The translations under genes and the position numbers were made by a program. A model generated the notes under the pieces. That model saw only the letters and a program-made list of their open reading frames with translations. It had not been told where the DNA came from and ran no database searches. Below, in pieces: positions 1,696 to 32,153 of a stretch of 36,394 bases of DNA; the stretch's first letter is position 1, and each line of letters starts with the position of its first letter. This stretch comes from a virus: positions 1 through 36,394 of the IMG/VR virus record IMGVR_UViG_3300047335_000135; one strand, written 5' to 3'.

Positions 1696-1755
1696 TACAG
1701 CTCCTTTTACTTTGGGCCATTTTGAGCGAAGTATACCAAAAATTATCACACATCA

Positions 1756-1938: not shown

Positions 1939-2065
1939 TTATTTTGGGCTTATGGATAAAAAACCTAAAATATCCCCTATTACAAGAATTAATCAAAATA
2001 TAAACTGTTAAAGAAACCAATAACGATATTTACAAAATTAAACAAGAATCTAAGTAGGAAAATAT

Positions 2066-2656
2066 ATGAAATATTTACGCACTCTTTCGGTAGCATGTTT
2101 GTTGCTTGTAGTGTCTTGTTCTGCTATGGATATGAAAAAACTATCCGTTGTTACTAAGCTCAAAGAACACACTTTTGATAAAAACAGTACTCATTTTTTA
2201 AAAAATAATCTCAGCAAAAGCTTAAAGAAAGATTTTCATACATCATCGTCAAACATATCTTTTGAAAAAAGCACCGAGATTAAGTCATTTGACCTTAATA
2301 AAAAGGGTAAATTTACTTCCATCCTTGCTAAAAAGTATATGAATGACAAAGTCTATATCACTCAAGATGAAAATGGTAAATACTATTGTAATGGTTCAGA
2401 AATTGCAGTAGTTACCAATGGTCCCACTGGTGCTGCCGTAGGAGCATTTGTTGGTTTTTGGGGAACGTATGTTATTTGCCATGGAGTTATATCGGGAGTC
2501 TGTCGGGTTATAGATGTTGTTGTTCCTATAGGGGGCGTTGCTGGAGGAGCTGCTCAGGCTGTTATAGTTAAATCGCTTGAACCTGCTATTGTATTAGCTT
2601 CAAAAAAAGTTGGTATAGCACTTGGTATAGCTGGAGGAGTAGGAACCCCTATTTAA
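2066..2656 (+). CDS. Putative lipoprotein with a glycine-zipper-like hydrophobic C-terminal region
   Basis: Signal peptide plus lipobox: MKYLRTLSVACLLLVVS|C. The C-terminal Gly/Ala/Val-rich stretch (GAAVGAFVGFWG...GGVAGGAAQAV...GIALGIAGGVG) resembles glycine-zipper outer-membrane lipoproteins. The RBS aggaaaa lies upstream. Confidence 0.7.
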   Translation: MKYLRTLSVACLLLVVSCSAMDMKKLSVVTKLKEHTFDKNSTHFLKNNLSKSLKKDFHTSSSNISFEKSTEIKSFDLNKKGKFTSILAKKYMNDKVYITQDENGKYYCNGSEIAVVTNGPTGAAVGAFVGFWGTYVICHGVISGVCRVIDVVVPIGGVAGGAAQAVIVKSLEPAIVLASKKVGIALGIAGGVGTPI

Positions 2657-2720
2657 TATAATTAAGTTGATTAACTCAGTTGTCGATATAATGTCGGCGA
2701 CTGAGATTAGAGGATGAAAT

Positions 2721-2939
2721 ATGTTTATGAAAAAAAGAGAATTAGTATTGCGCGTAGTCTGCATTTGGATATCATATTATATCTTTAGTTTATATTACCC
2801 AATATATTACGGAATGCTGCCCTATGATCATTGCTCTGAGAATATTAGACTTATTATGCTGATCATACTTTTTGTTATGAATATTGTTCTTATAATTATA
2901 CCACTTCAATATCATATATATCTTAAAATAACTAAATAA
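2721..2939 (+). CDS. Small integral membrane protein (2 predicted TM segments)
   Basis: Hydrophobic segments VVCIWISYYIFSLYYPIYY and LIMLIILFVMNIVLIIIPL, with the RBS gaggatgaaat upstream. Confidence 0.5.
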   Translation: MFMKKRELVLRVVCIWISYYIFSLYYPIYYGMLPYDHCSENIRLIMLIILFVMNIVLIIIPLQYHIYLKITK

Positions 2940-2991
2940 TCCCACAGCTGCGCAACTTTTAATACTAACCCTTATAACGAATTAACTTTAT

Positions 2992-3429
2992 ATGTCATGG
3001 ATAAAAACTTCAGATCAATTGCCCCCAAAAGATAGACGATTTATGGCATTAGATGCTCGGTATAATTATGACCCTCATACTATTATTGAGTTTATTGAAA
3101 AAGAAAGGGGGGCTTGTGATGATGAAGAATGCGAAGAATGTCCTGGGCATTATGTAGCACAAAAATATTGTGAAATGGATATATGTAGATGTCGAGAGCA
3201 ATATACTTTAGATGAGTTCTTATACTACTTTCCTTACTGGCAATTGTTGGAAGAGCCACCAAAGGAAATAGAAAGTTTTCACCTCTGTGGTTTTTGTAGA
3301 ATATCCGTACATGCAAAGTTTGTTTCATATTCAAAAGGATCAGATCCTAGAATATACAAAAATAGGCATATATGTGATTATTGTAGAAATCACGAGCGCA
3401 ATAGTAATTACACATTTTACGATCAATAA
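2992..3429 (+). CDS. Cys-rich hypothetical protein with a DUF551-like N-terminus
   Basis: MSWIKTSDQLPPKDRRF resembles the M-x-W-I-x-v-x-D-x-L-P start of DUF551 phage proteins (from memory). It has several CxxC pairs. The same N-terminal motif recurs in the ORF inside intron 3. Confidence 0.5.
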   Translation: MSWIKTSDQLPPKDRRFMALDARYNYDPHTIIEFIEKERGACDDEECEECPGHYVAQKYCEMDICRCREQYTLDEFLYYFPYWQLLEEPPKEIESFHLCGFCRISVHAKFVSYSKGSDPRIYKNRHICDYCRNHERNSNYTFYDQ

Positions 3430-3430
3430 T

Positions 3431-3450
3431 CCCACAACCGTGGGAATTTT
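3431..3450 (+). terminator. Weak terminator-like hairpin
   Basis: cccac-aacc-gtggg followed by aattttat. The stem is only 5 bp. Confidence 0.3.
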
Positions 3451-3645
3451 ATATCGCCTCTTCACACACCATTATTCTTAATGGTATATTCTCTCTGAGC
3501 AGTATCGAAGTGACGCTCGCTTCAACAAACCCCATCGGGCTGTATGAGTTTCGCCCACTCAACGTGCAGTATGCACATTTCTGGCTGTACAAGTCTCGCC
3601 AACTTACGTGTGTTTATGTGAAATAGCATAATGTAAGGTTTTTAC

Positions 3646-3681
3646 ATGCCTATTACAACTACAACCACATTACCTGCGCCT
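3646..3681 (+). CDS. Major capsid protein, exon 1 of 4 (MPITTTTTLPAP)
   Basis: ATG preceded by taaggt. The exon ends at T3681, which can form a U.G pair in a P1 helix: gcgccT 3676-3681 with Gggcgc 3691-3696. Joining to 4181 is in frame and gives LPAP|VQQSFSYKLL, which matches the N-terminal pattern of N4 gp56-type capsid proteins. Confidence 0.7.
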
Positions 3682-4180
3682 AAACGAGATGGGCGCGTTA
3701 AATCTTCTCTAATAGACTTGGAAACCGTAGTGGCGTTAAGTTAACCGGTGACAAGGGGCAAGATTATGAAAAGAAAATGTTCAAGCTGTAAACAGCAAAA
3801 AGAAGAAAATAAGTTTATGAAACCTGACCATAAAACATGCGAAAAATGCATTATGCGTGTTAGAAAATGGGAACGAAGAACTAAACGGTATTACTTTGGA
3901 CATCAAATATGATCAGCCTGAACGTAGCAAGCGAGAAGACTCTAGTGAATGATTGCTGTAAATACATTAGAAAGTTAAATATTTTCATAGAATGGTTGAG
4001 GGCCTGTGATCCAGATCCTAAAACTCGTCATGATATAATATGGGCTACTAATGAATTACACAAACTAGAGATGCGGTGCTCTGAACATTGTGGAAACACA
4101 GTGAGGGAAGCTCAATAAACTTCCTCGCCTAGAAAGTAGTGTGCAATAAGCACACCATAGGTCACAAAAGTAACAGATTG
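3682..4180 (+). mobile_element. Group I intron 1 in the capsid gene (499 nt)
   Basis: P1 / internal-guide pairing with a U.G pair. The conserved block aaatcttctctaatagacttggaaaccgtagtgg (3700-3733) is shared with intron 3. The shared 3' core is cctgaacgtagcaagcgagaagactc...gagatgcggtgctctgaacattg..gaaa..cagtgaggga. The intron ends ggtcacaaaagtaacagattG (omega-G at 4180). Confidence 0.75.
3766..3912 (+). CDS. Intron-1 ORF: 48-aa CxxC...CxxC zinc-ribbon-like protein
   Basis: My translation is MKRKCSSCKQQKEENKFMKPDHKTCEKCIMRVRKWERRTKRYYFGHQI. The ATG follows caaggggcaagatt, the same site where the intron-3 ORF starts. It is below the ORF-track cutoff. Confidence 0.4.
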   Translation: MKRKCSSCKQQKEENKFMKPDHKTCEKCIMRVRKWERRTKRYYFGHQI

Positions 4181-4456
4181 GTCCAACAAAGTTTCAGTTA
4201 CAAACTCTTATCGGTTCCTGTTCCAAACATGATCCATAAGATACCAGCTGAACTTAAAGTCATGCCTAGGAATGGTGGTGTTACGCTGAGAATGCGTAGA
4301 TATAATCCGTTACCAACTGCGTTAGTGCCACTTGGCAATACAGGTGTTACGCCTCCGAGTGTTAATTTGACGGCTATCGATATAGATGCCACCGTTTCAT
4401 TCTACGGTCAGTACATAATCCTTAACGAACAGGTTACTTTACAGAATCAAGACCCT
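4181..4456 (+). CDS. Major capsid protein, exon 2 of 4
   Basis: VQQSFSYKLLSVPVPNMIHKIPAELKVMPRNGGVTLRMRRYNPLPTALVPLGNTGVTPPSVNLTAIDIDATVSFYGQYIILNEQVTLQNQDP matches the conserved N-terminal half of HK97-fold / N4 gp56-type capsid proteins. The MCNKHTIGHKSNRL prefix of track ORF 4139..4477 is intron sequence. Confidence 0.85.
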
Positions 4457-5618
4457 AGACAAGCGATTGTAGCTTAACATTGACAGCGGTAAGTTTTTTC
4501 TGTAGCATAAGTAATATATTTACTTTTATGTGCGGAGAAAACATGAGAAAAGAGGAATTAATGTCATACCTTGCGGGAATAATTGATGGGGATGGAAGTT
4601 TTTCCATACTAAGAAAACAAGAAAAGAAAGACTTGTCTCCTTCATATTATCCATGCATTCAGTTTTCTAAATCATCAAATATACTTCCAAAATTATTACA
4701 TGATAACTTTGGAGGACGACTTTCTTGTGTTGATAGGAAAGAAAAAAGTGTCTTAGAGTATAAGTGGCGACTAGAAAGATCTGAGAAGTGTAGACCATTT
4801 TTAGAAGAAATAAGCCCATACTTACATATTAAGCAAGAGCAGGCTTTTGAATTGATAAGATTTATAGAAGATAATCCATTTAAGCGTGGAATAAGAGTAA
4901 CAAAAGAAGATATTTCATGCAGAGAAAACGCTAGAACTAGGGTTATGAATCTAAATGCTCGAAGGGATACCAAGTCTAAATTGAATAATTCGGTTAATTT
5001 TTCTTATAAGAGTGGTTTATTTTGGTCCTATTTGTCGGGATTATTGGATACTGACGGATCTTTTTCTATAAAGAAAGAGCGACGGGGAATTTATTCTCCT
5101 ATGGTATTGCTAAGTCTTATAAATTCTAAAGCAATCAATTTTATTAAAAACAATTGTAGTGTTGGTTCATTTTTTGTTGTTAAAGCACCACAGTTGCTTC
5201 AAAAGTTTTATTATCGTTTTGGTGTGTACAATAGAGATGAAGTTGTTGTTCTTCTAGATCAAGTAATTCCATATTTACTTCATAAAAAAAATTCTGCGGA
5301 AATCCTTAGAGATTTTTGTAATGGATATGTATCTCAGGGTGGAAGATATCTAAAGACAAAAGAGCAAGATGATTTTCGAGAAAACTGCTATCAAAGTTTG
5401 GTTAAATCAAATGGGGTCTATAAATCTCATCTAATAGACTTGGAACTCTTACCAGGCGATGCTGGAGACAACAGGGCGGAAGCAGCGGAAGCGTGCACCG
5501 TGAACGTAGTAAGCGATGAGACACCGGAAGGTGATGCGGTACTCTGAACTCTATGGAAACATAGAGAGGTAGGCTGAGAAGATCTACCCGCCAGAAATGG
5601 TCATAAAGTAACAGAATG
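4457..5618 (+). mobile_element. Group I intron 2 in the capsid gene (1162 nt), carrying a LAGLIDADG endonuclease gene
   Basis: P1 pairs agacccT (4450-4456) with Ggggtct (5413-5419), giving a U.G pair at the splice site. The guide is followed by aaatctcatctaatagacttggaa, homologous to introns 1 and 3. The 3' core is gaacgtagtaagcgatgagac...gatgcggtactctgaac, and the intron ends ggtcataaagtaacagaatG (5618). Confidence 0.8.
4543..5547 (+). CDS. LAGLIDADG homing endonuclease (double-motif, monomeric type)
   Basis: Two LAGLIDADG motifs: YLAGIIDGDGSF and YLSGLLDTDGSF. I chose the start at ATG 4543 (MRKEEL), 5 nt after ggag. The track ORF starts at 4480 with a non-ATG codon. The 3' end runs into the conserved intron core. 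Confidence 0.9.
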   Translation: MRKEELMSYLAGIIDGDGSFSILRKQEKKDLSPSYYPCIQFSKSSNILPKLLHDNFGGRLSCVDRKEKSVLEYKWRLERSEKCRPFLEEISPYLHIKQEQAFELIRFIEDNPFKRGIRVTKEDISCRENARTRVMNLNARRDTKSKLNNSVNFSYKSGLFWSYLSGLLDTDGSFSIKKERRGIYSPMVLLSLINSKAINFIKNNCSVGSFFVVKAPQLLQKFYYRFGVYNRDEVVVLLDQVIPYLLHKKNSAEILRDFCNGYVSQGGRYLKTKEQDDFRENCYQSLVKSNGVYKSHLIDLELLPGDAGDNRAEAAEACTVNVVSDETPEGDAVL

Positions 5619-5738
5619 GTTTTGAATCAGGCGGCTGAAAGGCTCGGGGTCTCATTGAGACAAACAGAGGATACGCTGACTCGTGATATGCTTGCAGCTA
5701 CAGCGGCCTTCATAAACTGTACTGCTGGTGTCAACGGT
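5619..5738 (+). CDS. Major capsid protein, exon 3 of 4
   Basis: VLNQAAERLGVSLRQTEDTLTRDMLAATAAFINCTAGVNG continues the capsid-family pattern (...DP|VL...G.q....D.ltRd.l.a.t). Both junctions are in frame. Confidence 0.85.
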
Positions 5739-6172
5739 AGAATTGTTGCCGTTGTAAAATCTTCTCTGATAGACTTGGAAACCGTAGTGGTGTTTAACTA
5801 ACCGGCGACAAGGGGCAAGATTATGGAATGGATAAAAGTAACAGATAAGACAAAAATAAGAGCAGATAGATTTTTAGTGTTACTTCCAAATGACTTAGCA
5901 AATGACCAATATTGGCCACACATAGCAAGTAGACATTTTGGAAGCAACATTGAATTCGATATTGATGAATTAGAGTCATGCTCTGGAGAATGGAGATTAT
6001 CTGACTTTGCTTATTATGCCTATCTTTATAATCAGCCTGAACGTAGCAAGCGAGAAGACTCACAGAAATGTGAGATGCGGTGCTCTGAACATTGCAGAAA
6101 TGCAGTGAGGGATAAGTAGAGAAAGTCCCCGCCAAATAGAAATTATTTGGTCACAAAAGTAACAGAAAAATG
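5739..6172 (+). mobile_element. Group I intron 3 in the capsid gene (434 nt)
   Basis: P1 pairs caacggT (5732-5738) with Gccgttg (5748-5754), giving a U.G pair. The block aaatcttctctgatagacttggaaaccgtagtgg (5757-5790) and the 3' core (6033-6112) are near-identical to intron 1. The intron ends ggtcacaaaagtaacagaaaaatG (6172). Confidence 0.8.
5823..6119 (+). CDS. Intron-3 ORF with a DUF551-like N-terminus; its 3' third overlaps the intron core
   Basis: MEWIKVTDKTKIRADRF parallels MSWIKTSDQLPPKDRRF of ORF 2992..3429. The tail QPERSKREDSQKCEMRCSEHCRNAVRDK is read-through of conserved intron RNA, so the true coding extent is uncertain. Confidence 0.4.
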   Translation: MEWIKVTDKTKIRADRFLVLLPNDLANDQYWPHIASRHFGSNIEFDIDELESCSGEWRLSDFAYYAYLYNQPERSKREDSQKCEMRCSEHCRNAVRDK

Positions 6173-6688
6173 GACAACCCTACTGAAATTCAACGACCTG
6201 ATGTTGATACGGTGGTGCGAACATTGCTTGATAACGATGCTTACACCGTATTAGATAACATACAGGGTGAAGACCGTTTCGGTACTGCTCCTGTTCGAGA
6301 TGCGTACTTTGCTCTTTGCAGTACTCAACTTACTGGTAACTTAGATGCAGTTGCTGGATTTATTCATAAGAATAACTATCCATCACCTATGAATGCGTTA
6401 CGAAGCGAGTGGGGCTCCATTGGCAACCTACGTTTCTTGATTTCTAGTATTGGTTCTGCAATTCCTTTTGCATCTGCAAATGGTAATACCGTATACAACA
6501 TATTCTGTGTTGGTATGGAAGCATATGCCTGCGTGGAACAAGATGGATATAGTGCGGCCTTTATATATCGACCACCGATATATGATGGTCCATTGGCTCT
6601 TAATGCGTCTGTTGGGTACAAGTTTGCTGAGGTCCCGCGTATCTTAAATGATGCCTGGGTAATCAATTTACGTGCAACACAAGCCTAA
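6173..6688 (+). CDS. Major capsid protein, exon 4 of 4
   Basis: DNPTEIQ...SEWGSIGNLRFLISS...VYNIFCVGMEAYACVEQDG...PLALNASVGYKFAEVPRILNDAWVINLRAT matches the C-terminal GE.G...g.RF....Vy...v.G..ay..v...g....PL....vG.K......iLn..w pattern of this capsid family. The spliced product is 315 aa. Confidence 0.9.
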   Translation, partial: DNPTEIQRPDVDTVVRTLLDNDAYTVLDNIQGEDRFGTAPVRDAYFALCSTQLTGNLDAVAGFIHKNNYPSPMNALRSEWGSIGNLRFLISSIGSAIPFASANGNTVYNIFCVGMEAYACVEQDGYSAAFIYRPPIYDGPLALNASVGYKFAEVPRILNDAWVINLRATQA

Positions 6689-6697
6689 GGAGTAACT

Positions 6698-7771
6698 ATG
6701 AATAATACTATTACTCTACAAGGTCAATTTACATCAACAGGTGCTAATATCATCATACCTATACCATCGGGTGTAAGTTGGATGAGAGTGCTTAACCAAA
6801 CAGCGCTTACGCAAGCCGCTGCCGTTTTAGGGTATGATTTCTTCTGGCAGGTAGGCATGCCTATTTCCCAGGGTGTTGTGTGGACTAAAAATGGTGGTTT
6901 AGCTAATAACTCGGTTACTGTTGGTGAACTTGCTGCTAATAATGGCTTTACTGTTATTAATACATCTATTGCTACTCCTGGTGTGTCATATGCTATTACT
7001 GGGTTTAGTGCCGCTAATCCTCCAGTTGTTCTCACAGCGACTACTCCTCTTGTGGGTCAGTTTGTACGATTGGCAAACCTCAATAACCAACCGCAATTTG
7101 CAGGTATCGATTTCCAAGTTACTGCAGTTAACCCTGGAGTAAGTTTTACACTTGGTGGTGTTAACGCCGTAGGTACTGTAGTTTCTAACGCGGGTAGTTA
7201 TAGAGTTATTCCTGTATCTCAATGGTATCCAACCCATCGAGCTATTACCTATATGTCAGCTGAAGTAACACCTGTAATCTATACTTCTGTTAGTAGTGGA
7301 TACCAAGTTGGCCAAGAAATACGTCTTAACTTCCCTGGTGGCACTCAAGTCTGGGGTAATTATGCGCTTCTTGATGGTATGCAAACAACTATTCTTGCTG
7401 TGGGTAACGCTCCTGTTATTGTAACCGGTAATGAACCTACAACACTCTTTACTATTACAGTAAATATAGATACATCAGCGTATGGCCCTTGGGCATTTGC
7501 TGGTCCTACGTACTATCCACCTGCTGCTTTAGTTCCGTTCTCTCCCGCTCAAACAACACCGATCGGTGAATATACCTCTATAGCATTACTTAATAACGTT
7601 AACATCCTCAGTGATGCAACGTTAAACACTGCATTTATAGGTATGCAACTTGGTGGTGGTCTGCGCGGAGCCGGCGCTCAAAACGCAGGACCTGCTGGAG
7701 GATTCAATACTGGTACTGGTATTGGTGACTCTATGTTCTGGATGGCTGGTAATACCTTCACGTTTTATTGA
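6698..7771 (+). CDS. Virion structural protein (putative), with two small beta-barrel-like repeats
   Basis: Strong RBS taaggagtaact. It lies immediately after the capsid gene. Segments ANPPVVLTATTPLVGQFVRLANL...FQVTAVNPGVSFTL and VTPVIYTSVSSGYQVGQEIRLNF...TTLFTITVNIDTS resemble the core of ORF 8283..8660. Confidence 0.5.
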   Translation: MNNTITLQGQFTSTGANIIIPIPSGVSWMRVLNQTALTQAAAVLGYDFFWQVGMPISQGVVWTKNGGLANNSVTVGELAANNGFTVINTSIATPGVSYAITGFSAANPPVVLTATTPLVGQFVRLANLNNQPQFAGIDFQVTAVNPGVSFTLGGVNAVGTVVSNAGSYRVIPVSQWYPTHRAITYMSAEVTPVIYTSVSSGYQVGQEIRLNFPGGTQVWGNYALLDGMQTTILAVGNAPVIVTGNEPTTLFTITVNIDTSAYGPWAFAGPTYYPPAALVPFSPAQTTPIGEYTSIALLNNVNILSDATLNTAFIGMQLGGGLRGAGAQNAGPAGGFNTGTGIGDSMFWMAGNTFTFY

Positions 7772-7777
7772 TAATGA

Positions 7778-7800
7778 GGGGGCCCTTAAGGGTCCCCTTT
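7778..7800 (+). terminator. Rho-independent terminator candidate
   Basis: gggggccc-ttaa-gggtcccc forms an 8-bp stem with one G.U pair, followed by ttt. Confidence 0.55.
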
Positions 7801-7813
7801 ACTAGGAGAGACT

Positions 7814-8266
7814 ATGTCACAAAAAGAAACAGTAGAAAAATCACACACTAATCCCCGTAATCTTACTCCATCAAAGCCAGAGCGACGATCCGGTAAAGAC
7901 TGGGCATTTGAGATGCAAAAAGATAAAGAAATGGTTCGTGGCATCTTTAGGTTCCATGAGGTTCCCGGTGGTACAATGAGTTTTGTATATAAGAAGTACC
8001 GCGATGAACCAGTACAGTCGTTTACGCTTATAGATGGCCAAGTATATAATTTACCTCTTGGTGTAGCACGCCATCTCAATAAAAACTGTTGGTATCCTGT
8101 TCATGATTATCTCATGGATGAAATGGGTAGGTTTGGCGGTCAATTTAAAATACAGAAAAAGGTGCGTCGCTGCAGCTTCCAGAGTTTGGAGTTTGTTGAT
8201 ATAGAAGATATCACGCCAGAGGGTGAAGCAACTATCTACACCGCACAGAAGATAGGTATGATGTAA
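7814..8266 (+). CDS. Hypothetical head-module protein
   Basis: 150-aa ORF with the RBS aggaga. The function is not recognised with confidence. Confidence 0.55.
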   Translation: MSQKETVEKSHTNPRNLTPSKPERRSGKDWAFEMQKDKEMVRGIFRFHEVPGGTMSFVYKKYRDEPVQSFTLIDGQVYNLPLGVARHLNKNCWYPVHDYLMDEMGRFGGQFKIQKKVRRCSFQSLEFVDIEDITPEGEATIYTAQKIGMM

Positions 8267-8282
8267 GCTTATAAGGAAAGAT

Positions 8283-8660
8283 ATGCCTGGACCAATACCG
8301 AATCCATACTATATACCATTTCCCGTATTTCTTCCTGCTATGCGTAATATAGGTGCTATTACGCAAGCAACTAATGCGCTTGTAACAACCACTTTTCCGC
8401 ATAGTTATCAAACTGGTGATATTGTGAGACTGCTTGTCCCTCAAGGATGGGGTATGGTTCAGGCTAATACACTTATAGGTGAAATAGTTGTTACGAGTCC
8501 TACGCAGTTCACTATAACTATAGACACTACTAACTTTGATGCTTTTGTAACGCCACCAAATCCATCGCCACAGGTAAATTCGGTAGCGCAAGTTATTCCT
8601 GTGGGAGAAAATAATAATAAGCTCACACAAGCCACTAGGAATGTTTTACCACCATATTAG
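8283..8660 (+). CDS. Small virion protein (putative), single beta-barrel-like domain
   Basis: TQATNALVTTTFPHSYQTGDIVRLLVPQGWGM...VVTSPTQFTITIDT is related to the repeats in ORF 6698..7771. Confidence 0.5.
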   Translation: MPGPIPNPYYIPFPVFLPAMRNIGAITQATNALVTTTFPHSYQTGDIVRLLVPQGWGMVQANTLIGEIVVTSPTQFTITIDTTNFDAFVTPPNPSPQVNSVAQVIPVGENNNKLTQATRNVLPPY

Positions 8661-8668
8661 GAGCAACT

Positions 8669-9718
8669 ATGGCAGATAGTACACTTGCAGCTATAAGAAC
8701 TAAAGTAAGGCGACTTACTCTTTCTCCATCGCCAAACCAATTATCCGATGCTGATATAGATCAATATGTTAATACGTTTATACAATACGACTTTCCTGAA
8801 CATCTAAGACTTTTTAACTTGCGCCAGAAATATACATTCTATACATCGCCAGGTGTTGATGTGTATCAATCTAATGAAATAATCAACGATCCTTTATTTG
8901 AGTTCCAACAGAACTTTCTTACTGTTCACCCACCAGTGTATGTAGACGGTGTAGAAATCAATATGACTCAGTCTGAGAGCGAATTATTTAGATGGTATCC
9001 AAAGAATAGATCGGATATGACTTTAACTATTGGTGATGGAGTAAGTACTACTTATACTGGCTTTATCAATAGTCTTAACTCACCACTAAGTCAGTTTAAT
9101 AGCCAGAATATTAATATACTGCGCAATTATGTGACGATAACTTCTGCGGATGCCGTTAATAACGCTATAGTTATGCAAGATACGCCTTATAATGGCGCAA
9201 CTGGATATCTATATCCGCCAAATACCTATCCTGACCTTACAATGCCACCTGATGCAAATAACACGATTAACTATCTTACCGGACAATATACCGTTACGTT
9301 TCCCACAGCACCTGCGGCAGGTCAAAACATCAATGCGCATGTATTTTACTATCAGCCAGCACGACCAACTATTGTTATGTATTTCCAGAATCAGTTTACT
9401 TTTAGGCCAGTGCCAGACCAGGCATATCCTGTAGATATAGAAGTGTATGTAAGGCCTACGCAGTTATTAGCCGCTGGACAATCTCCGCAATTAGAAGAGT
9501 GGTGGCAGTATATAGCTGCGATGTCGAGCAAGAAAATTCTTGAAGATCGCAGAGACACTGATAGCGTTAATAGGATCCTTCCGCTCTGCAAAGAGCAAGA
9601 GTTGTTGGTGTTACGGAGAACTATTGTACAGAACACTAATGAACGCGTTGCTACAATATATACAGACGCTTTAAATAGCAGTAGCCCAGGATATAACTGG
9701 GGACAGGGGACATTCTAA
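8669..9718 (+). CDS. Virion structural protein, possible head-tail adaptor (position-based)
   Basis: RBS taggagcaact. 349 aa, lying between the capsid genes and the tail-tube-sized genes. Confidence 0.4.
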   Translation: MADSTLAAIRTKVRRLTLSPSPNQLSDADIDQYVNTFIQYDFPEHLRLFNLRQKYTFYTSPGVDVYQSNEIINDPLFEFQQNFLTVHPPVYVDGVEINMTQSESELFRWYPKNRSDMTLTIGDGVSTTYTGFINSLNSPLSQFNSQNINILRNYVTITSADAVNNAIVMQDTPYNGATGYLYPPNTYPDLTMPPDANNTINYLTGQYTVTFPTAPAAGQNINAHVFYYQPARPTIVMYFQNQFTFRPVPDQAYPVDIEVYVRPTQLLAAGQSPQLEEWWQYIAAMSSKKILEDRRDTDSVNRILPLCKEQELLVLRRTIVQNTNERVATIYTDALNSSSPGYNWGQGTF

Positions 9719-10308
9719 TGGCTTTCAACCAAAATATTCCGTTAGCTACCGATAAAATATCACAATCACAGGGCCAGATACTCGGCAACTTCCAATCGCT
9801 TTATACATGGGCAAATGCTAACCATGTAAGTTTCGATCTAACCAATGCGGGTAAGCACATCTATGTACAAATGCCCGTACAGGGGGCTCCTCCAGCGTTT
9901 ACGTTGGGAGAAATAGATCTGTGGAATCAGGCATATGCTACTACCGGCAAGAATGAACTTTTTGTACAAAAAGAGAATCAAGCAGCTGATGTAAGTATAC
10001 CAATGACGGCTTCTATATTGGGAGCAAATCCAGCGCCCGGAGCTACCGGATGGACATTTTTGCCATCAGGTATCCTTCTTAAATGGGGACAGGCCACAAC
10101 AGTAGTGGGAACGGTAGTAGTTAACCTTAATGCCGGCGGGGATCTTGGATCTAACTTCACAGCGCTTTATTCTTGTCAGGTTTCATATGCAGTGATTCCT
10201 GCTCCCGGTGGAACGCTTTCCTGTATACGAGGATTTCCAAATCTCTCTATTAATTCTAATACTGCCGGATCAGTAGTTAATTGGTTCGCAATAGGAACAG
10301 GGGCATAA
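9718..10308 (+). CDS. Tail tubular protein A-like (size and synteny only)
   Basis: 196 aa, ATG overlapping the upstream stop (TAATG), directly before a 759-aa gene. This mirrors the T7 gp11 (196 aa) / gp12 pair. I verified no motif. Confidence 0.35.
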   Translation: MAFNQNIPLATDKISQSQGQILGNFQSLYTWANANHVSFDLTNAGKHIYVQMPVQGAPPAFTLGEIDLWNQAYATTGKNELFVQKENQAADVSIPMTASILGANPAPGATGWTFLPSGILLKWGQATTVVGTVVVNLNAGGDLGSNFTALYSCQVSYAVIPAPGGTLSCIRGFPNLSINSNTAGSVVNWFAIGTGA

Positions 10309-10309
10309 C

Positions 10310-12589
10310 ATGGCTTATGATCGTTTTCTTATAGCTCCTCTCAAATCAGGACTTATAACCGGTATACCACAATGGCAAATACCGGAAGATGCTTTTTACC
10401 AGCTCTATAATGCCTATGTATTTAGAGGAACGGTAAGAAAGCGAGTTGGATCAGAGCTTATGGGATCGGGGGCTACGTCTACTATGACGGCACCCCTATT
10501 ATCGCGCCTACGAGCGCTTGTGGGGACAACAAATGGTGCAGGTAATCTTAGTGGCACTGTTCCTGGTGCTAGCCCTGTCTATAGTACTTTGGGCCAGCAG
10601 TTCTCTATAGGAGGTGAAATATACACAGTATATCTTGCGGGTAACCATCCCATGCTTGACACGGGTGCAACAGTAACTAAAACATTTAACACCGCAAACG
10701 GACAGTTTGTATTTGCTGGTGCTCCTATTAACACTCCGGTGTATTACTATTCAGGCCAGCCTGTTTTAGGTATTTGTAACTATGAAGTAGGGCCTATTAA
10801 TGATCAACCCACTATAGCATTTGATACACAGTTTGCTTACGAGTGGCAAACTAATCAATGGGTACTTATTGACACTACTTCAGTGGGAACCATGCAATGG
10901 CATGGAACCAATCTTAACTATTACTGGACCTGCAATTGGGACGGACCGGCGGATGATGATGTGTATCTTTTTGTAACTAATTTTAACGCTACCATCGGCG
11001 CTCCTGGCCCCACTGATGATCCTATATGGGCCTACGACGGAACCAATTGGAATAATTACAGTAATGCTACTACTTTTTTAGCAGATGGATCATTCATCCA
11101 AACAGCACTGATTATTCTTCCCTTCAAGAATCGTCTTATTATGCTCAATACGATTGAGTTTCTTGATTCAGATATGGAGAACCATGCCTATTCTAATAGA
11201 TGTCGTTATAGCATCAATGGATCTCCTACGGCTACTAATGCATGGTATGAGCCGGGTGTGGTTGTTGGCGGTACTAATGCAGCCGGTGCTGGTTTTATAG
11301 ATGCACCAACAAAAGAAGCCATCGTATCTGCTCAATTCATTAAAGATCGCCTTATTGTACAGTTCGAAAGGTCAACCTGGGAACTTGCATACACGGGTAA
11401 TCAAGTCTTACCTTTTGTATGGCAACAGCTTAATCAAGAGCTCGGTGCCCTGGGTACCTTTTCAACGGTGCCTTTTGATAAGGTAGTTCTGGCTGTAGGT
11501 GATACGGGTGTTCATGCCTGCAACGGATCCAACGTAGAGCGTATAGATAATAATATACCTGATGAGATATTTGAGATAAGTAAACAATCAAATGGATCTA
11601 AGCGAGTGGCGGGTATACGTGACTACTACCCTGAGTTGGTCTATTGGTCTTTTCCATCAGTAGAGATACCATCCGTAAATACCAATCGCTATCCAGATCA
11701 AGTTCTAGTCTATAATTACGCCAATCAGACCTGGGCTCTTTTTGATGATACCTGGCTCTGTTATGGATACTTCTTCCAGTCGACAGATGTAACATGGGCT
11801 GACCTTAATGAGACATGGGAAGACTATGATGCTACGTGGAATGATATGCTTGTACAGGCACAGCAACGACAAGTGCTTGCAGGAAATCAACAGGGATATG
11901 TGCTTATTATCAATAGAGATCTGCCTACTAACGCTCAGTCTCTTACCATAACTAACGTTCCTACTATAGCAGGTAGCATTGTTACTCTTACCGTTATGAG
12001 TCATAGTTTGTCATCAGTTGAGGATCAAGAAGACTATGTATATATCTTGGATCTTAATGGCATTGCAGGATTTGTTCCAGGTATTTACCAGGTATATATG
12101 GTTATTGATCTCAATACTATTCAGGTTATTATACCTGGTCTTGCTGGTGTTTACACTGGTGGGGGGACCATGTTCCTTGTATCTGAGATAGATATCTATT
12201 CTAAGCAATGGAATCCCTATGTATCTAAAGGTCGTAGTTTTTATGTTCCCTATTTAGATTTTTGTGTGCTACGCACCGCAGCCGGTGAAATAACCATAGA
12301 TTACTTTGCCTCGAGCTCGCAACTAGGGCTTGTTCCCCAGGGAATAGCAACAGGAGCTGCGCTAGGAACAAACGTATTAGAAACGAGTCCTTATGCGATA
12401 GTTCCACAAGAGCAACAACAACAGCGATTATGGCATAGGGTCTATTGCCAATCTGATGGTAGCTTTATACAGATACGATTGTATTGGACACAGGAGGAGA
12501 TGATGACTCCGGCGATATCTCTAGAAGGATTTAACCTTGAAGGTATGGTACTCAATTGTACGCCTACCCGCGACGACTTATTAGGATAA
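10310..12589 (+). CDS. Tail tubular protein B-like / nozzle (size and synteny only)
   Basis: 759 aa, the largest structural ORF, lying after the 196-aa gene. Confidence 0.35.
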   Translation: MAYDRFLIAPLKSGLITGIPQWQIPEDAFYQLYNAYVFRGTVRKRVGSELMGSGATSTMTAPLLSRLRALVGTTNGAGNLSGTVPGASPVYSTLGQQFSIGGEIYTVYLAGNHPMLDTGATVTKTFNTANGQFVFAGAPINTPVYYYSGQPVLGICNYEVGPINDQPTIAFDTQFAYEWQTNQWVLIDTTSVGTMQWHGTNLNYYWTCNWDGPADDDVYLFVTNFNATIGAPGPTDDPIWAYDGTNWNNYSNATTFLADGSFIQTALIILPFKNRLIMLNTIEFLDSDMENHAYSNRCRYSINGSPTATNAWYEPGVVVGGTNAAGAGFIDAPTKEAIVSAQFIKDRLIVQFERSTWELAYTGNQVLPFVWQQLNQELGALGTFSTVPFDKVVLAVGDTGVHACNGSNVERIDNNIPDEIFEISKQSNGSKRVAGIRDYYPELVYWSFPSVEIPSVNTNRYPDQVLVYNYANQTWALFDDTWLCYGYFFQSTDVTWADLNETWEDYDATWNDMLVQAQQRQVLAGNQQGYVLIINRDLPTNAQSLTITNVPTIAGSIVTLTVMSHSLSSVEDQEDYVYILDLNGIAGFVPGIYQVYMVIDLNTIQVIIPGLAGVYTGGGTMFLVSEIDIYSKQWNPYVSKGRSFYVPYLDFCVLRTAAGEITIDYFASSSQLGLVPQGIATGAALGTNVLETSPYAIVPQEQQQQRLWHRVYCQSDGSFIQIRLYWTQEEMMTPAISLEGFNLEGMVLNCTPTRDDLLG

Positions 12590-24707: not shown

Positions 24708-24829
24708 ATACTTGAATATGTTGAGTGTCAAGTATATTTTTGATATAGTTGGATAATGATTGGCATGGTTGACTGGGATGCTCTTACTGCATCAAGGTAC
24801 GGTAATAGGAAATTTTCCTTTTGGGGATA

Positions 24830-25082
24830 GTACCCAAGCTTTTTTGGTTGCATACTGCCATGAATCCCGGAAAACGATACGGACTGAAGATGTGACAAAG
24901 CGTCACGAACTGAGAGCGGTACCCAAGCTCAAACCAAAGCGGTACCCAAGCTCAAACCAAAGCGGTACCCAAGCTCAAACCAAAGCGGTACCCAAGCTTT
25001 TTTCCCTAGAATAAAGGCTTTTTTGGGTGCATAATGCCATGAATCCCGGAAAATTGTGTATGAGTGCGTGACAAAACGTCAC
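24830..25082. repeat. Two copies of a roughly 80-nt module flanking a tandem array
   Basis: Each module contains gtacccaagctttttt (24830; 24988), the exact 19-mer tgccatgaatcccggaaaa (24856-24874; 25035-25053), and a palindrome gtgacaaaRcgtcac (24892-24906; 25068-25082). Confidence 0.85.
24916..24999. repeat. Tandem repeat, 23-bp unit gcggtacccaagctcaaaccaaa x 3.6 (iteron-like)
   Basis: Three perfect units (24916-24938, 24939-24961, 24962-24984) plus a 14-15 nt partial fourth unit, read directly. Confidence 0.95.
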
Positions 25083-25136
25083 GGGTTGAAACTTGCAACA
25101 GTTGCTGCAAAAATAAGAAATAAGAAAAGTAGGGTG

Positions 25137-28180: not shown

Positions 28181-28645
28181 ATGATTCTGTTGGGCATAGA
28201 TCCAGGAACGCAGTACTTGGGCTTCTCTCTATTAACTGACCCAAAGAAGCCAAAACTATTACAGTATGGTTGCCTTAAGCTCAATCCCAAATCGAGTATC
28301 CCTGATCGCCTGGAAGAGATACATACGTTCTTTGCTGCTAAGATACTGAGCGATGAAGTAACGCATATGGCTATAGAGACACCATTTTTGGGTAAGAACA
28401 TACAATCATTTATGAAGCTATGCTATGTGCGTGGCATACTCTATCTCCTAGCAACACAAAACGATTTGGTGCTGTACGAATACTCACCGACAGAAGTAAA
28501 GAAGGCTATATGTACCTTTGGTGGTGCTCCTAAAGAACAAGTAGCACGCGTATTATGGCATATGTTTAAGGGGCTAGAGTCAGATCTTCGTGATGATATA
28601 ACGGATGCTATAGCAGTAGGGTTGTGCGGATTATGGAAGAAGTAG
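28181..28645 (+). CDS. ruvC: RuvC-type Holliday junction resolvase
   Basis: MILLGIDPGTQYLGF (Asp), MAIETPF (Glu), K..YVRG, P.EVKKA..G.G.A.KEQV and DDITDAIAVG (Asp/Asp) reproduce the bacterial RuvC catalytic tetrad and spacing. Confidence 0.85.
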   Translation: MILLGIDPGTQYLGFSLLTDPKKPKLLQYGCLKLNPKSSIPDRLEEIHTFFAAKILSDEVTHMAIETPFLGKNIQSFMKLCYVRGILYLLATQNDLVLYEYSPTEVKKAICTFGGAPKEQVARVLWHMFKGLESDLRDDITDAIAVGLCGLWKK

Positions 28646-29985
28646 GAAGACTAGAAGCGCGTATTAAGTTAGATAGGTTTAAGCCACGGGAGTTTCAAAT
28701 ACCTCTTATCAATGCATTAGAGAGAGATAAAAAGAAACGTTTGTTAGCAATATGGCCTCGTCGTGCCGGCAAGGATATATGCGCACTAAACATTATGCTT
28801 AGAGCAGCATTGCGTCAAGTGGGTAACTATTTCTATCTACTACCGACTGGTGTTCAAGCTCGGCGTACGGTGTTTGAAGGTATGACGATTGATGGTATGC
28901 AGTTCTTGGACTATATACCTGTAGAGCTTATAGAGAAAAAGAACATAGCTGAAATGAAACTTGTTCTCATTAACGGATCACAAATCCAGTTTGCTGGTAG
29001 CGATTCGTATGATAGGCTCATGGGTATCAGTGCCAATGGCATTATATTTAGTGAATATGCTTTGCAGGACCCTCGTGCCTATTCTTATTTGCGTCCAGCG
29101 CTCACAGCTGCTGATGCTTGGGCTCTGTTCATATCAACACCCCGCGGCCACAATCACCTTTATACTATGTATCAGGTAGCTAAAGAATCTCCAGACTGGT
29201 TCTGTTCGCATCTGACCGTGGAAGATACTAAGCACATATCTCTTTTCGATATACAAAAAGAAATATCTTTAGGAGAAATCTCCGAGGATCTGTCCAAGCA
29301 GGAATACTACACATCGTTTGACATGGGTATACAGGGCTCATATTACATGAAGTACATAGATAGACTGCGGTTAAATAATCAGATAACTGATGTGCCATGG
29401 GAGCCAAGTCATCCAGTGTATTCAAGTTGGGATATAGGTGTACGAGATAGTACCTCGATCATATTATTTCAGGTTATTGGTCAGACCGTAAGAATTTTAC
29501 AGGTATATGAAAAGAATAAAGAAGGACTTGAGCATTACATCAACTTTATAAAGTCACAGCCCTATACGTATGCTAAGCATTTTGCTCCTCACGATATGAA
29601 GCAAATGGAGTTTGGTTCAGGTATGACCCGTTGGGCCAAGGCTTATGATCTTGGGGTTAACTTCACTGTTGTAGATAACATTCCCATTGTTGATGGTATT
29701 GAGGTAGTGCGCAGTGTATTACCACGTTGCTGGTTTAATGAAGCTACAACAAGGCCGCTTATTAGGGCTTTAGAGAACTATCGACAAGAGTTTGATACCA
29801 AACACAATGTGTATAAAGGATCACCAGTGCATGACCAATACAGCCACTTTGCAGATAGTTTTAGGTATCTAGCAGTTGGATTGCGCCATGCACAAAAAAG
29901 CACATCGCCTGAAGAACTAGAGCGTAGATATCATGAAGCAACTTATGGCGATCAGCAGTTTACTGGATTTTTTAGGCAACAATAA
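28624..29985 (+). CDS. terL: Terminase large subunit
   Basis: Walker A-like WPRRAGKD, then ...LINGSQIQFAGSD (ATPase coupling region), and a C-terminal RNase H-like nuclease segment (SWDIGVRDSTSIILFQV...HDM...D.F). The start is GTG 28624 or ATG 28633 and overlaps the ruvC end. Confidence 0.8.
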   Translation: MRIMEEVGRLEARIKLDRFKPREFQIPLINALERDKKKRLLAIWPRRAGKDICALNIMLRAALRQVGNYFYLLPTGVQARRTVFEGMTIDGMQFLDYIPVELIEKKNIAEMKLVLINGSQIQFAGSDSYDRLMGISANGIIFSEYALQDPRAYSYLRPALTAADAWALFISTPRGHNHLYTMYQVAKESPDWFCSHLTVEDTKHISLFDIQKEISLGEISEDLSKQEYYTSFDMGIQGSYYMKYIDRLRLNNQITDVPWEPSHPVYSSWDIGVRDSTSIILFQVIGQTVRILQVYEKNKEGLEHYINFIKSQPYTYAKHFAPHDMKQMEFGSGMTRWAKAYDLGVNFTVVDNIPIVDGIEVVRSVLPRCWFNEATTRPLIRALENYRQEFDTKHNVYKGSPVHDQYSHFADSFRYLAVGLRHAQKSTSPEELERRYHEATYGDQQFTGFFRQQ

Positions 29986-30013
29986 TTGACATGCCAATAT
30001 GCCGTGATATATT
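29986..30013 (+). promoter_or_regulatory. Sigma70-like promoter candidate directly after the terL stop
   Basis: TTGACA (29986-29991), a 16-nt spacer, then TATATT (30008-30013). Confidence 0.5.
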
Positions 30014-30025
30014 TATGCCAACATT

Positions 30026-30255
30026 GCTCATGTATCTACCTTAGATATATATAATAGCTCACTGAGAGTGAAAGGCTCATAATATTTATAAATAGATGGT
30101 CATGAATTTTTATTAATGCTTAATTAAGCGCTCAACAGCAACCCATGAAATGCTCACGTGGTTTAAAGAATTAGCGCAATGTTGAATGCTCATATCATAG
30201 AATTGCAATAAAGGCTCAAGTTTTATAATCATTATAAATACTCACAGAAGGCTCA
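30026..30255 (+). repeat. Strand-asymmetric cluster of the GCTCA motif (8 exact copies plus 1 ACTCA) in the leader of the TnpB-like gene
   Basis: GCTCA starts at 30026, 30057, 30075, 30130, 30152, 30188, 30214 and 30251, with ACTCA at 30240. The contexts are WRGCTCAYR, three of them as aaggctca. I saw no TGAGC in this interval. Confidence 0.85.
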
Positions 30256-30265
30256 CGTTAACTAA

Positions 30266-31375
30266 ATGATACAAGTACAACTGAAACTTAAACTTACACG
30301 CAAACAAGAAACTATGATCCAAGAATGGTTTCCTATTCTAACGTCCATATGGAACTGGGCGATAAAGAAGATAGAATGGGATGCTGCTGATCATATCTAT
30401 TACAATAAGTTTGAGTTTGTTAATATGTTGGCTGGTCATAATAAGCGCTTGGGTATACCATCACATACTATTCAGGCAATGCTCAAAGATGCACATACCA
30501 CATGGCAGCGTTGTTTTAAGAAACTAGCAAGAGCACCACGACTTAAGGGGCAAAGAAATAGGCTCACATCCGTATCTTTTCCTGATCCTATAAAAAAAGC
30601 TCATGTTAATAGTACATCAATTGAATTGCCTTATTTGGGCAAACTTAAGTTTCATAAACAAATAATACCTTCGGGCAATATTAAATGTGCCCGTATAGTA
30701 AAGCGTGCTTCGGGTTTTTATCTTTGTTTGTTTATAGATGCTCAATCAAACAGAATTGCTCATAAGGGCTGTGAAGCGATAGGCATACAGCTCAGCGTTG
30801 ATGGTCGTATGGCATTATCTAATGGTGATATTATTCAACGCGAAGCACAGTTGCAAAAACATCTCAATAGATTGGCTCAAGCACAGCGCGGTGGTAATAA
30901 AAAGCTAGTAGCTCGATTGCATGAACGCATAGCCAATTGCCGTAAAGACGCCAATCATAAACTGTCTCGCAAGATGGTAGAGCAGTATGATACGATAGTG
31001 GTTAATAAAGATGACCTCAAGCAAAGAGCTCGTAATCTAGGCCTTTTGGTTGCTGATTCTGCCAATTACCAGCTACGTTTGATGATGTGTTATAAGAGTG
31101 AGAATAATGATAGAAAATATATAGAAGTTGCATCCAACACTAGTACTGCTGGTGCTACAATTTCCACCGTGACATGTTCAGTATGTAGATCACCTTCGGG
31201 TCCTGCATCATTGACATGTCTGAAGGTAAGGGAATGGGTTTGTGTGAGCTGTGGAACTCTTCATGATCGCGATGTAAATACCGCGAAAAACACACTTATT
31301 TCCGGGCTTGGAGCGAGCCACGAGAGCGATGCGAGTCGCGTCCGAAATTTATTGACTAATCGTTATGAGCTATAA
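30266..31375 (+). CDS. tnpB: TnpB-like (IS200/IS605 OrfB family) protein with the RuvC-I Asp replaced by Gln; predicted nuclease-inactive
   Basis: TnpB landmarks are present: VQLKLKLTRKQETMIQEWF..IWNWAI, AIGIQLSVDGRMALSNGD (RuvC-I position is Q), HERIANCRKDANHKLSRKMVEQYDTIVVNKDDLK (RuvC-II region), a CSVC...CVSC zinc ribbon, and HDRDVNTAKN (RuvC-III). Confidence 0.8.
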   Translation: MIQVQLKLKLTRKQETMIQEWFPILTSIWNWAIKKIEWDAADHIYYNKFEFVNMLAGHNKRLGIPSHTIQAMLKDAHTTWQRCFKKLARAPRLKGQRNRLTSVSFPDPIKKAHVNSTSIELPYLGKLKFHKQIIPSGNIKCARIVKRASGFYLCLFIDAQSNRIAHKGCEAIGIQLSVDGRMALSNGDIIQREAQLQKHLNRLAQAQRGGNKKLVARLHERIANCRKDANHKLSRKMVEQYDTIVVNKDDLKQRARNLGLLVADSANYQLRLMMCYKSENNDRKYIEVASNTSTAGATISTVTCSVCRSPSGPASLTCLKVREWVCVSCGTLHDRDVNTAKNTLISGLGASHESDASRVRNLLTNRYEL

Positions 31376-31641
31376 GCATGAGTTCAACCTTAATAGTTTC
31401 TATACCATGAGTTCGTCTTTGTAGTTAGTGATCATGGGCTCGTGCTTGAAGAAAAATAGCGGGGCTGGCAAAACAGTTCATATGGATGGCATAATCTCAT
31501 AAAATATGTCTAAATAGCTCACTCACGATCATTGAATTCAGTTAAACTCATAGATAGAAATAGGCTCATATAACCTATCCGCTCATTCAAGACATTTGTC
31601 ATATTAAGATCGCAGATCGGGTTTGTAGAAATAGGAAATAA
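31376..31641 (+). other. 266-nt non-coding tail of the TnpB-like gene; candidate omega/guide RNA region
   Basis: No ORF is present. It holds three CATGRGYTCR repeats (31377, 31406, 31433) and further GCTCA copies (31517, 31564, 31581). In canonical TnpB loci the omega RNA overlaps the 3' end of the gene and extends downstream. Confidence 0.35.
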
Positions 31642-31779
31642 ATGGATGAAATTAGAATTAGTGTTTTTTTACCTCAAGAACTCTACGAAATATTGAGAAG
31701 AATGGCGTTTGAACAAAGGATAACGCAAAAAGAAATAATCGTAGCGGCTTTAACAGAGTACATCAACAACGGCAATTAG
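31642..31779 (+). CDS. Ribbon-helix-helix (CopG/Arc-like) protein, 45 aa
   Basis: My translation is MDEIRISVFLPQELYEILRRMAFEQRITQKEIIVAALTEYINNGN, a textbook strand-helix-helix. The RBS aggaaataa lies upstream. Below the track cutoff. Confidence 0.6.
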   Translation: MDEIRISVFLPQELYEILRRMAFEQRITQKEIIVAALTEYINNGN

Positions 31780-31794
31780 ATTTCCTTATAGTTG

Positions 31795-31830
31795 AGGTCC
31801 AGTCAGTAGCGTATGCTGCTGGGCCTTTTT
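31795..31830 (+). terminator. Rho-independent terminator candidate
   Basis: Long imperfect stem aggtccag(t)cag...ctgctgggcct followed by ttttt. Confidence 0.6.
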
Positions 31831-31896
31831 CACCTCTTGCATTATTCCCCTTATATTTAGTAAGATGCTCTATGCAAATGGTATAGACAGAAAAAA

Positions 31897-31994
31897 TACC
31901 CGGTAGCTCAGCGGTAGAGTGATTGCCAGTAAAACGAGATTATTAGTTGTAATTTTGGGCAATTGGGACGTTGGTTCGAATCCAACTCGGGTTT
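31897..31994 (+). tRNA. tRNA-like gene with about 25 extra nt in the anticodon arm; identity undetermined
   Basis: The acceptor tacccgg / tcgggtt has a 1:72 mismatch. The D arm is gctc-agcggta-gagt and the T arm is gttgg-ttcgaat-ccaac. The anticodon stem halves attgc (31922-31926) and gcaat (31959-31963) are separated by 32 nt instead of 7. Confidence 0.55.
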
Positions 31995-32079: not shown

Positions 32080-32153
32080 GACCTGTTAGTTTATTGGTAG
32101 AACCCTGGGTTTTCAGCCCAGAGGAAAAGGTTCGATTCCTTTACAGGTTGCCA
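32080..32153 (+). tRNA. tRNA-Glu (anticodon UUC) with encoded CCA
   Basis: Folded manually. Acceptor gacctgt / acaggtt, D arm gttt-attggta-gaac, anticodon arm ctggg-ttTTCag-cccag, variable agga, T arm aaagg-ttcgatt-ccttt, discriminator g, then cca. Confidence 0.75.

Follow-up and report, generated by a model that had tools for sequence, protein, structure and literature searches.

TldRs are nuclease-dead derivatives of TnpB that carry one, two or three mutated acidic residues; they are polyphyletic, and only 'many' of them are truncated (10.1101/2023.11.30.569447). They have lost the transposon ends, lie beside a conserved partner and repress promoters by means of a guide RNA that they have kept, and their fliC clade is found in temperate phages (Wiegand et al., 10.1101/2023.11.30.569447). 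A 'rearranged catalytic site' has been described for several TnpB clades, and conserved catalytic-site alterations, including a RuvC-I class named 'RIr', were treated as possibly active (Altae-Tran et al. 2023, PMC10691335). In archaea, the pairing of a ribbon-helix-helix (RHH)/MazE protein with TnpB was proposed to be a toxin-antitoxin (TA) system (PMC10691335). Phage-encoded nuclease-dead TnpBs, single-acidic-residue mutants and RuvC-I-altered branches are already published as a concept. Here we describe a tnpB-like gene on the 36,394-nucleotide virus record IMGVR_UViG_3300047335_000135 (this whole stretch of DNA is called the window), whose product has Gln in place of the RuvC-I catalytic Asp. 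We lean, with modest confidence, towards regarding this phage TnpB as a selected, cleavage-deficient and RNA-guided DNA binder, immobilised in the phage genome and of the TldR type. Judging from its sequence, it lies outside the published fliC, oppF and csrA TldR lineages and arose independently from another clade.

The open reading frame (ORF; Table 1) contained all of the peptides quoted in the initial annotation of this DNA (AIGIQLSVDGRMALSNG, IVVNKDDLK and HDRDVNTAKN), and its translation matched the NCBIfam model guided_TnpB with 145.1 bits (cutoff 100) as well as the Pfam families OrfB_IS605 and Cas12f1-like_TNB. An AlphaFold2 (AF2) model, for which 120 homologues served as input, had a predicted local distance difference test score (pLDDT) of 88.7 and a predicted template-modelling score (pTM) of 0.78. 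The closest folds in the PDB, determined using Foldseek, were those of ISFba1 TnpB (8iaz, TM 0.78) and ISDra2 TnpB (8h1j, TM 0.75), and the modelled protein has the TnpB fold with the domain order WED/REC, RuvC and Zn ribbon. These data show that the ORF encodes a full-length TnpB, in agreement with the complete TnpB layout that had been assigned to it. The window DNA had no nucleotide match among 50,697 cultured phage records, and the nearest TnpB protein among cultured phage records was 29.5% identical.

Database relatives of the phage TnpB numbered about 1,360; three of them were 91-97% identical to it and the rest approximately 50-58%. For residue counts, 85 related loci were fetched from genomes and metagenomes. 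In many family copies, a gene for a Y1 TnpA ends just upstream of tnpB. Near-identical copies occupy different flanks with sharp ends, and the elements are multi-copy. The right end is always ...GGGGAGGTTCAA, followed by unrelated or variable DNA, and the 5 bases to the left of the left end were TGAAC or TGAGC at about 40 loci. These 5 bases differ between copies of one element, as expected of a transposon-adjacent motif (TAM). On this comparison of sequences, the parent family of the phage TnpB is a genuine active insertion sequence of the IS605 type, linked to Y1 TnpA and bearing a DRDxN motif at RuvC-III.

In a gap-free HMMER alignment to the ISDra2-numbered PDB chain, D191 of ISDra2 paired with Q175 of the phage TnpB. 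The residue at this RuvC-I position was Asp in 82 of the 85 related loci and Gln in 3, all of which are phages: the window, L088 (97% identical) and L089/L001 (91%). The family motif GIDPGF has become GIQLSV in these phages, leaving their TnpB, with Q175 for D191, without a complete RuvC catalytic set. The replacement of Asp by Gln noted in the initial annotation was thus confirmed, and the comparison of homologues that it had proposed placed Gln in the three phage loci only. Its refuting option, that the Asp of the downstream SVDG fills the RuvC-I site, found no support in the same sequence alignment, in which this residue (D179) paired with the Lys of the GIK motif. The RuvC-II Glu of ISDra2, E278, paired with N247. 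Its loss had been taken as evidence of inactivation, but Ser occupies this position throughout the active, TnpA-linked family, so that the missing Glu is a family trait and not a second lesion. By sequence, the parent family corresponds to the branches called 'RuvC-II rearranged' (PMC10691335), in that the Glu is lost and other acidic residues are invariant; E220, D249, D334 and D336 do not vary across the family, phages included. The RuvC-III Asp and the zinc ribbon, whose retention had been noted correctly, are both in place, with all four ribbon cysteines (C304, C307, C326 and C329) kept. In these alignments, the sole phage-specific catalytic loss is that at RuvC-I.

The phage protein keeps 91 of the 102 family columns that are at least 95% conserved. 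Eight of its losses were non-conservative. Three affect RuvC-I (D175Q, P176L and G177S), one the strand of RuvC-II (S247N), two the helix after that strand (S261L and H267N) and two the Zn-ribbon loop (G315S and G318C). At the level of sequence, such a distribution would be anticipated for a protein that abandoned catalysis but retained its fold and its binding of nucleic acids.

The gene order terL, tnpB, RHH gene, two tRNA-like genes and portal was the same in the window, which is a complete, circularly permuted genome (Logan contig), in L001/L005 and in L088; on the contigs compared, the carriers of this tnpB cassette are a few uncultured phages related to one another. The ratio of nonsynonymous to synonymous substitution rates (dN/dS) of tnpB was 0.084, 0.104 and 0.113 in the three phage pairs, at a dS of 0.18-0.58, and the three phage versions had no frameshifts or stops. 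The codon for Gln175 is CAG in two lineages, including that of the window, and CAA in L088, a synonymous change. Because dN/dS is low and the Gln codon itself has changed synonymously, we concluded that the protein and its Gln were maintained by purifying selection after the D-to-Q change. A further contig, L002 from ENA, was considered as a clue to the host or as a prophage junction and was rejected. Its positions 1-1152 are 96%-identical phage DNA, positions 1153-9455 hold GC-rich bacterial genes, and the join lies inside tnpB. Because the GC content rises from 0.36 to about 0.65 at the point at which similarity to the window stops, L002 is almost certainly an assembly chimera.

We built a covariance model, R1, from 40 family elements, using the final 190 nt of each. 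It matched the window over all 188 positions with 101.7 bits (E = 3e-28), L088 with 104 bits and L001 with 97 bits, scores to which the overlapping coding sequence contributes a part. In the family RNA structure, 96.6% of cells were paired and 18 of 29 pairs showed double changes; slid controls gave 33-48%. The predicted phage scaffold lies at the 3' end of the gene and overlaps the last ~185 nt of the tnpB ORF. In codons 301-369 dS was 0.15, versus 0.35-1.3 elsewhere in tnpB, and one scaffold hairpin carries a compensatory change, GCGA/TCGC in the window versus GCGC/GCGC in L088. Taken together, these data indicate that the phages have retained an omega-RNA scaffold. Apart from tRNAs, nothing in the window matched an Rfam model, and none of the curated omega-RNA families was detected. 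Two AT-rich family members, L107 and L150, have a variant right end, ...CATATAAGGAGTTTAGTATATGAGTCTCAA, and score 101-104 bits on R1. Because these scores resemble those of the phages, L107 and L150 may be the nearest relatives of the phage scaffold.

The terminus of the scaffold is present twice (Table 1), and the 13-14 nt between the two copies (31386-31398) differ among the three phages, which gives the region a repeat-spacer-repeat look. Duplicated right-end termini also occur in the family members L132 and L137, and the phage duplication may therefore be the remnant of a tandem insertion. No CRISPR array was found near the gene using TRF; the two scaffold-terminus copies of ~16 nt were the only repeats there, and the repeat-spacer array that accompanies the effector in type V CRISPR-Cas systems is missing. 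By analogy with the family, the candidate guide would begin either at 31388 (CCTTAATAGTTTCTAT...) or, behind the second terminus, at 31415. A search of the window for self-targets, using 11-mers and 16-mers (up to 2 mismatches) from 31376-31641, gave chance-level matches only, and a comparison of all TGA[AG][CA]-flanked window sites on both strands with all guide starts was likewise at chance level. In viral contigs, the 14-mer CCTTAATAGTTTCT had at least 120 matches, none of them flanked by a TAM; TGARC followed by GTCTTTGTAGTTAG had 0 matches; and TGARC followed by AACCTTAATAGTT had 3 matches in unrelated contigs, approximately the number estimated for chance.

A tblastn search with eight family TnpAs found no TnpA in the 36-kb window (best E = 0.6), the spacer upstream of tnpB had no left-end hairpin, and there was no TGARC at the left junction. 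The gene is present as a single copy at the same locus in three phages and, with TnpA and the left end gone, has none of the multi-copy behaviour of a transposon; instead, lost ends are combined with a conserved neighbourhood and accessory gene, suggesting that the element has been immobilised. Its flanking genes are terL and portal. The initial annotation was right on these flanks and on the absence of TnpA, and the sigma70-like promoter that it had assigned to the gene was recovered with an 11/12 match. In L168, a relative whose terL is 70% identical, other, unrelated cargo without tnpB lies between terL and portal, so that the terL-portal junction is a hot spot for variable cargo. The L168 cargo (7345-10745) comprises genes of 82, 127 and 453 aa, none with a Pfam family above the curated cut-off. 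No integrase was found among the window ORFs scanned.

Table 1. Coordinates of the tnpB cassette features in the window
Feature	Position	Strand	Basis or remark
Sigma-70-type promoter, TTGACA-16-TG-TATATT	29986..30013	+	11/12 positions, extended -10
Putative transcribed leader, eight GCTCA copies	30020..30265	+	Leader status inferred from promoter position
tnpB-like gene, 369 aa	30266..31375	+	ORF call, domain matches, AF2 model
Q175 at the RuvC-I Asp position	codon 30788-30790	+	Alignment to ISDra2 chain and family loci
E220	codon 30923-30925	+	Invariant in family and phage
D249	codon 31010-31012	+	Invariant in family and phage
D336 (RuvC-III)	codon 31271-31273	+	Equals ISDra2 D361, kept
Predicted omega-RNA scaffold, ending at GAGTTCAA	31192..31387	+	Covariance model R1
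Scaffold terminus copy 1, GCTATAAGCATGAGTTC	31369-31385	+	Read from sequence
Scaffold terminus copy 2, TCTATACCATGAGTTC	31399-31414	+	Read from sequence, three-phage alignment
Second promoter-like site, TTCATA-17-TAAAAT	31477..31505	+	Ahead of RHH gene, block conserved in three phages
RHH leader with three GCTCA copies (31517, 31564, 31581)	31517..31585	+	
45-aa ribbon-helix-helix (CopG/Arc-like) gene	31642..31779	+	Pfam RHH_1, PHROGs
Terminator-like hairpin and T-run closing the cassette	31803..31832	+	

The promoter ahead of tnpB lies directly after the terL stop, within approximately 95 nt that are conserved in L001. Downstream of it, GCTCA starts at 30026, 30057, 30075, 30130, 30152, 30188, 30214 and 30251, always on the + strand, and the last copy (GAAGGCTCA) supplies a Shine-Dalgarno-like AAGG. 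GCTCA was the most enriched 5-mer of this upstream spacer (8 observed versus 0.39 expected, p = 9e-9) and again of both tnpB-flanking spacers of the window combined (11 versus 0.72, p = 3.5e-10); the flanking spacers of L001 had 11 copies versus 0.91 expected. The arrays are retained in the three phages (L001, 9077-9275 and 10623-10696; L088, 1373-1490 and 2751-2884) while the intervening DNA has diverged. Each array begins just downstream of a promoter-like site, and the unit is often A(A/T)AGGCTCA. GCTCA is the reverse complement of TGAGC, one of two TAM-like left flanks in the family, and differs by one base from GGTTCA, the terminus of the right end. The arrays may be operator boxes for the RHH protein, TnpB-related sites or an RNA-level motif with complementarity to the AUGAG(C/U) repeats in the scaffold terminus. 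The idea that such arrays are usual at terL-portal junctions was rejected because L168 has no enrichment, and none were seen in the RHH-linked bacterial relatives.

The small gene downstream of tnpB matched Pfam RHH_1 with 21.9 bits (cutoff 20.5) and an Arc-like repressor in PHROGs. Past its start codon the protein is identical in the three phages, at a dS of 0.46-1.2, and it is probably a regulator or partner of the tnpB cassette. In three bacterial family members, L132, L152 and L160, an RHH gene lies between the left end and tnpB, in the usual place of TnpA; the phage RHH protein is 26% identical to that of L152. The bacterial RHH genes encode approximately 43-50 aa (L152, 245-373; L160, ~487-623; L132, ~1350-1500).

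Several other features of these genomes were recorded. The divergent early region of the window (24826-25085) contains a perfect 23-bp tandem repeat, AGCGGTACCCAAGCTCAAACCAA, in 3.7 copies (24915-24998), flanked by a direct repeat of ~35 nt (24841-24875 and 25020-25054) and two GTGACAAARCGTCAC palindromes, and looks like an iteron-type origin or a regulatory site. We rejected this repeat as part of the GCTCA motif system, since it is a separate, perfect tandem repeat in which GCTCA simply happens to occur. The tRNA-like gene at 31897-31994 (98 nt; 41 bits with Rfam) was missed by ARAGORN, is conserved in L001 and appears to hold an insertion of ~25 nt in its anticodon region. It is followed, at 32080-32153, by a normal tRNA-Glu(TTC). 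A LAGLIDADG homing-endonuclease gene at 4480-5547 (Pfam LAGLIDADG_1, E = 1e-8) is a second selfish element of the window, and L001 has one at its end. The gene for a RuvC Holliday-junction resolvase (28181-28645) overlaps the start of terL (28624-29985) by 22 nt. This terL start is uncertain: it is the GTG at 28624 in the window, and the calls in related contigs are shorter.

The phage TnpB resembles the TldRs in that it derives from an IS605-type TnpB, has lost a RuvC residue, the transposon ends and TnpA, resides at a fixed site with an accessory gene, keeps a scaffold and is phage-borne; the single change D175Q falls within their definition, which allows one, two or three acidic residues. 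It differs in having arisen independently, from a clade with about 55% identity in which RuvC-II was already rearranged, in its RHH neighbour, where TldRs have fliC, oppF or csrA, and in its position between terL and portal of an uncultured phage. Moreover, TldR guides match conserved promoter targets, whereas the sequence 3' of the phage scaffold varies and has no match above chance level in the phage genome or in viral contigs. The phage protein keeps the full Zn ribbon and RuvC-III, which the initial annotation had set against the TldRs, but this is no real distinction, given that only 'many' TldRs are truncated (10.1101/2023.11.30.569447). Canonical IS200/IS605 TnpBs, such as those of ISDra2 and ISFba1, share with it the fold (TM 0.75-0.78), the domain order, an omega-RNA over the 3' end of the gene and the DRDxN motif; unlike them, it has no TnpA, left-end hairpin or RuvC-I Asp, and it is single-copy and vertically inherited. 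The RuvC-II-rearranged branches, the RuvC-I-altered 'RIr' class and the TnpB-RHH linkage of Altae-Tran et al. 2023 (PMC10691335) all have counterparts here. The RHH-TnpB link echoes the archaeal RHH/MazE-TnpB pairs (PMC10691335), but gene order and catalytic changes differ: the archaeal pairs have RHH upstream and the RuvC-III Asp changed to His, whereas the phage pair has RHH downstream and RuvC-I changed to Gln, and it does not belong to that group. Cas12k and Cas12m are also derived from TnpB and bind DNA with a guide RNA without cutting, as we propose for the phage TnpB; they are much larger proteins that work with CRISPR arrays, whereas the phage has only the duplicated scaffold terminus with its ~13-nt spacer.

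We propose the following origin and mechanism. An IS605-type element of the Y1-TnpA-linked clade may have entered the variable terL-portal junction of an ancestral phage, after which TnpA and the left end would have been lost. RuvC-I would then have changed from GIDPGF to GIQLSV while selection kept the remaining protein, the zinc ribbon and the scaffold. The gene's own strong promoter would drive tnpB transcription, and RNA from the 3' end of the gene would load into the protein and direct it to DNA beside a TGARC-like motif. Without the metal-binding Asp, the protein would bind and not cut, acting as a roadblock or repressor like a TldR, and the small downstream RHH protein would be a probable transcriptional regulator or partner. 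In calling this a domesticated, cleavage-dead TnpB, the initial annotation was supported as to domestication by the purifying selection and the kept scaffold. The words 'cleavage-dead' went too far, since we infer the loss of cleavage from sequence and the phage clade has gained acidic residues.

Several observations weigh against the proposal. The RuvC-I change is carried by no more than three sequences, all closely related. The hairpin that ends the scaffold, strong and GC-rich in the family, is weak and AU-rich in the phages, and the ORF has been extended through it. The first, seed-side half of the candidate guide differs among the three phages, which is not expected of a fixed regulatory guide, and no target for any candidate guide was found in the phage genome or in viral contigs. 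Finally, two aspartates are new in the phage clade: D179 replaces a family Lys and D250, beside the invariant D249, a family Asn. Because both are near the catalytic centre, the active site may have been re-wired. The protein would then still be a nuclease, with D250 or D179 replacing D175, and could serve as an RNA-guided homing or anti-competitor endonuclease. The confinement of both residues to the phage clade, the retention of E220, D249 and D336 with an intact zinc ribbon and RuvC-III, the strong purifying selection and the treatment of the 'RIr' class as possibly active (PMC10691335) all fit such an enzyme. We nevertheless consider it quite unlikely. In the secondary structure of the AF2 model, D179 lies at the tip of the beta1-beta2 hairpin and D250 at the end of the neighbouring strand; given the hairpin-tip position and the conserved Lys that ISDra2 has there, D179 is unlikely to be a metal ligand. 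To our knowledge, the beta-1 Asp has proved essential in every RNase H-fold guide-dependent nuclease tested, for example in ISDra2 D191A, Cas12a D908A and Cas9 D10A. Further conserved residues around the site were lost too, and with the left end gone and no TGARC at the left junction, the locus does not follow the 'empty site' logic of a TAM plus guide.

Could the gene be a recently broken selfish element that has no function in the phage and whose decay is still pending? Lone tnpB genes without TnpA are very common (272 cultured phage records have a TnpB homologue), approximately 15% of Y1-linked TnpBs have catalytic replacements (PMC10691335), and the lack of a target in the phage genome and viral contigs is in keeping with this idea. 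Against it, dN/dS was only 0.08-0.11 over a dS of 0.18-0.58 accumulated since the lineages split, the reading frame is undamaged, the Gln codon itself changed synonymously, and conservation extends to the promoter, the scaffold and the RHH gene, so that we regard a broken element as very improbable. Domestication is much likelier than decay because the lone Gln175 TnpB, with TnpA and left end gone, has its own promoter, a shared site, purifying selection and a scaffold. The RHH protein and TnpB might instead form one functional unit, either a TA-like addiction module or an RHH protein acting on GCTCA boxes beside a guide-independent role of TnpB. The RHH gene is adjacent and its product invariant in the three phages, RHH takes the place of TnpA upstream of tnpB in L132, L152 and L160, both promoters are closely followed by GCTCA arrays, and archaeal RHH/MazE-TnpB pairs were proposed to be TA systems (PMC10691335). 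The published systems, however, have RHH upstream, a TnpB predicted to be an active toxin and the RuvC-III Asp changed to His, whereas the phage cassette places RHH after tnpB behind a promoter-like site of its own, retains D336 and has lost the RuvC-I Asp. In addition, the bacterial RHH-linked loci have no GCTCA arrays, and a toxin without the catalytic Asp is hard to picture; we judge such a unit unlikely. A more elaborate form of the binder proposal, which we also hold to be rather improbable, is a self-contained RNA-guided circuit. In it, the mini-array at 31369-31414 would give the cleavage-deficient TnpB more than one short, fast-evolving guide, and the GCTCA arrays in the tnpB and RHH leaders would be TnpB-related sites for autoregulation or alternative guide loading and not ordinary RHH operators.

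If confirmed, the cleavage-deficient, RNA-guided binder would add another independent example of a transposon nuclease that a phage has tamed to bind DNA under RNA guidance. Both its TnpB clade and its type of phage differ from those of the enterobacterial fliC-TldR prophages, and it would thus widen the known range of natural 'CRISPRi-like' regulators. The protein appears to be at an early stage, full-length, substituted at RuvC-I and intact in RuvC-III and the zinc ribbon, with an active family about 55% identical for comparison, and these features could make it suitable for asking which changes turn a cutter into a binder. The recurring RHH link and the arrays complementary to the TAM are testable leads on how the cassette may be controlled.

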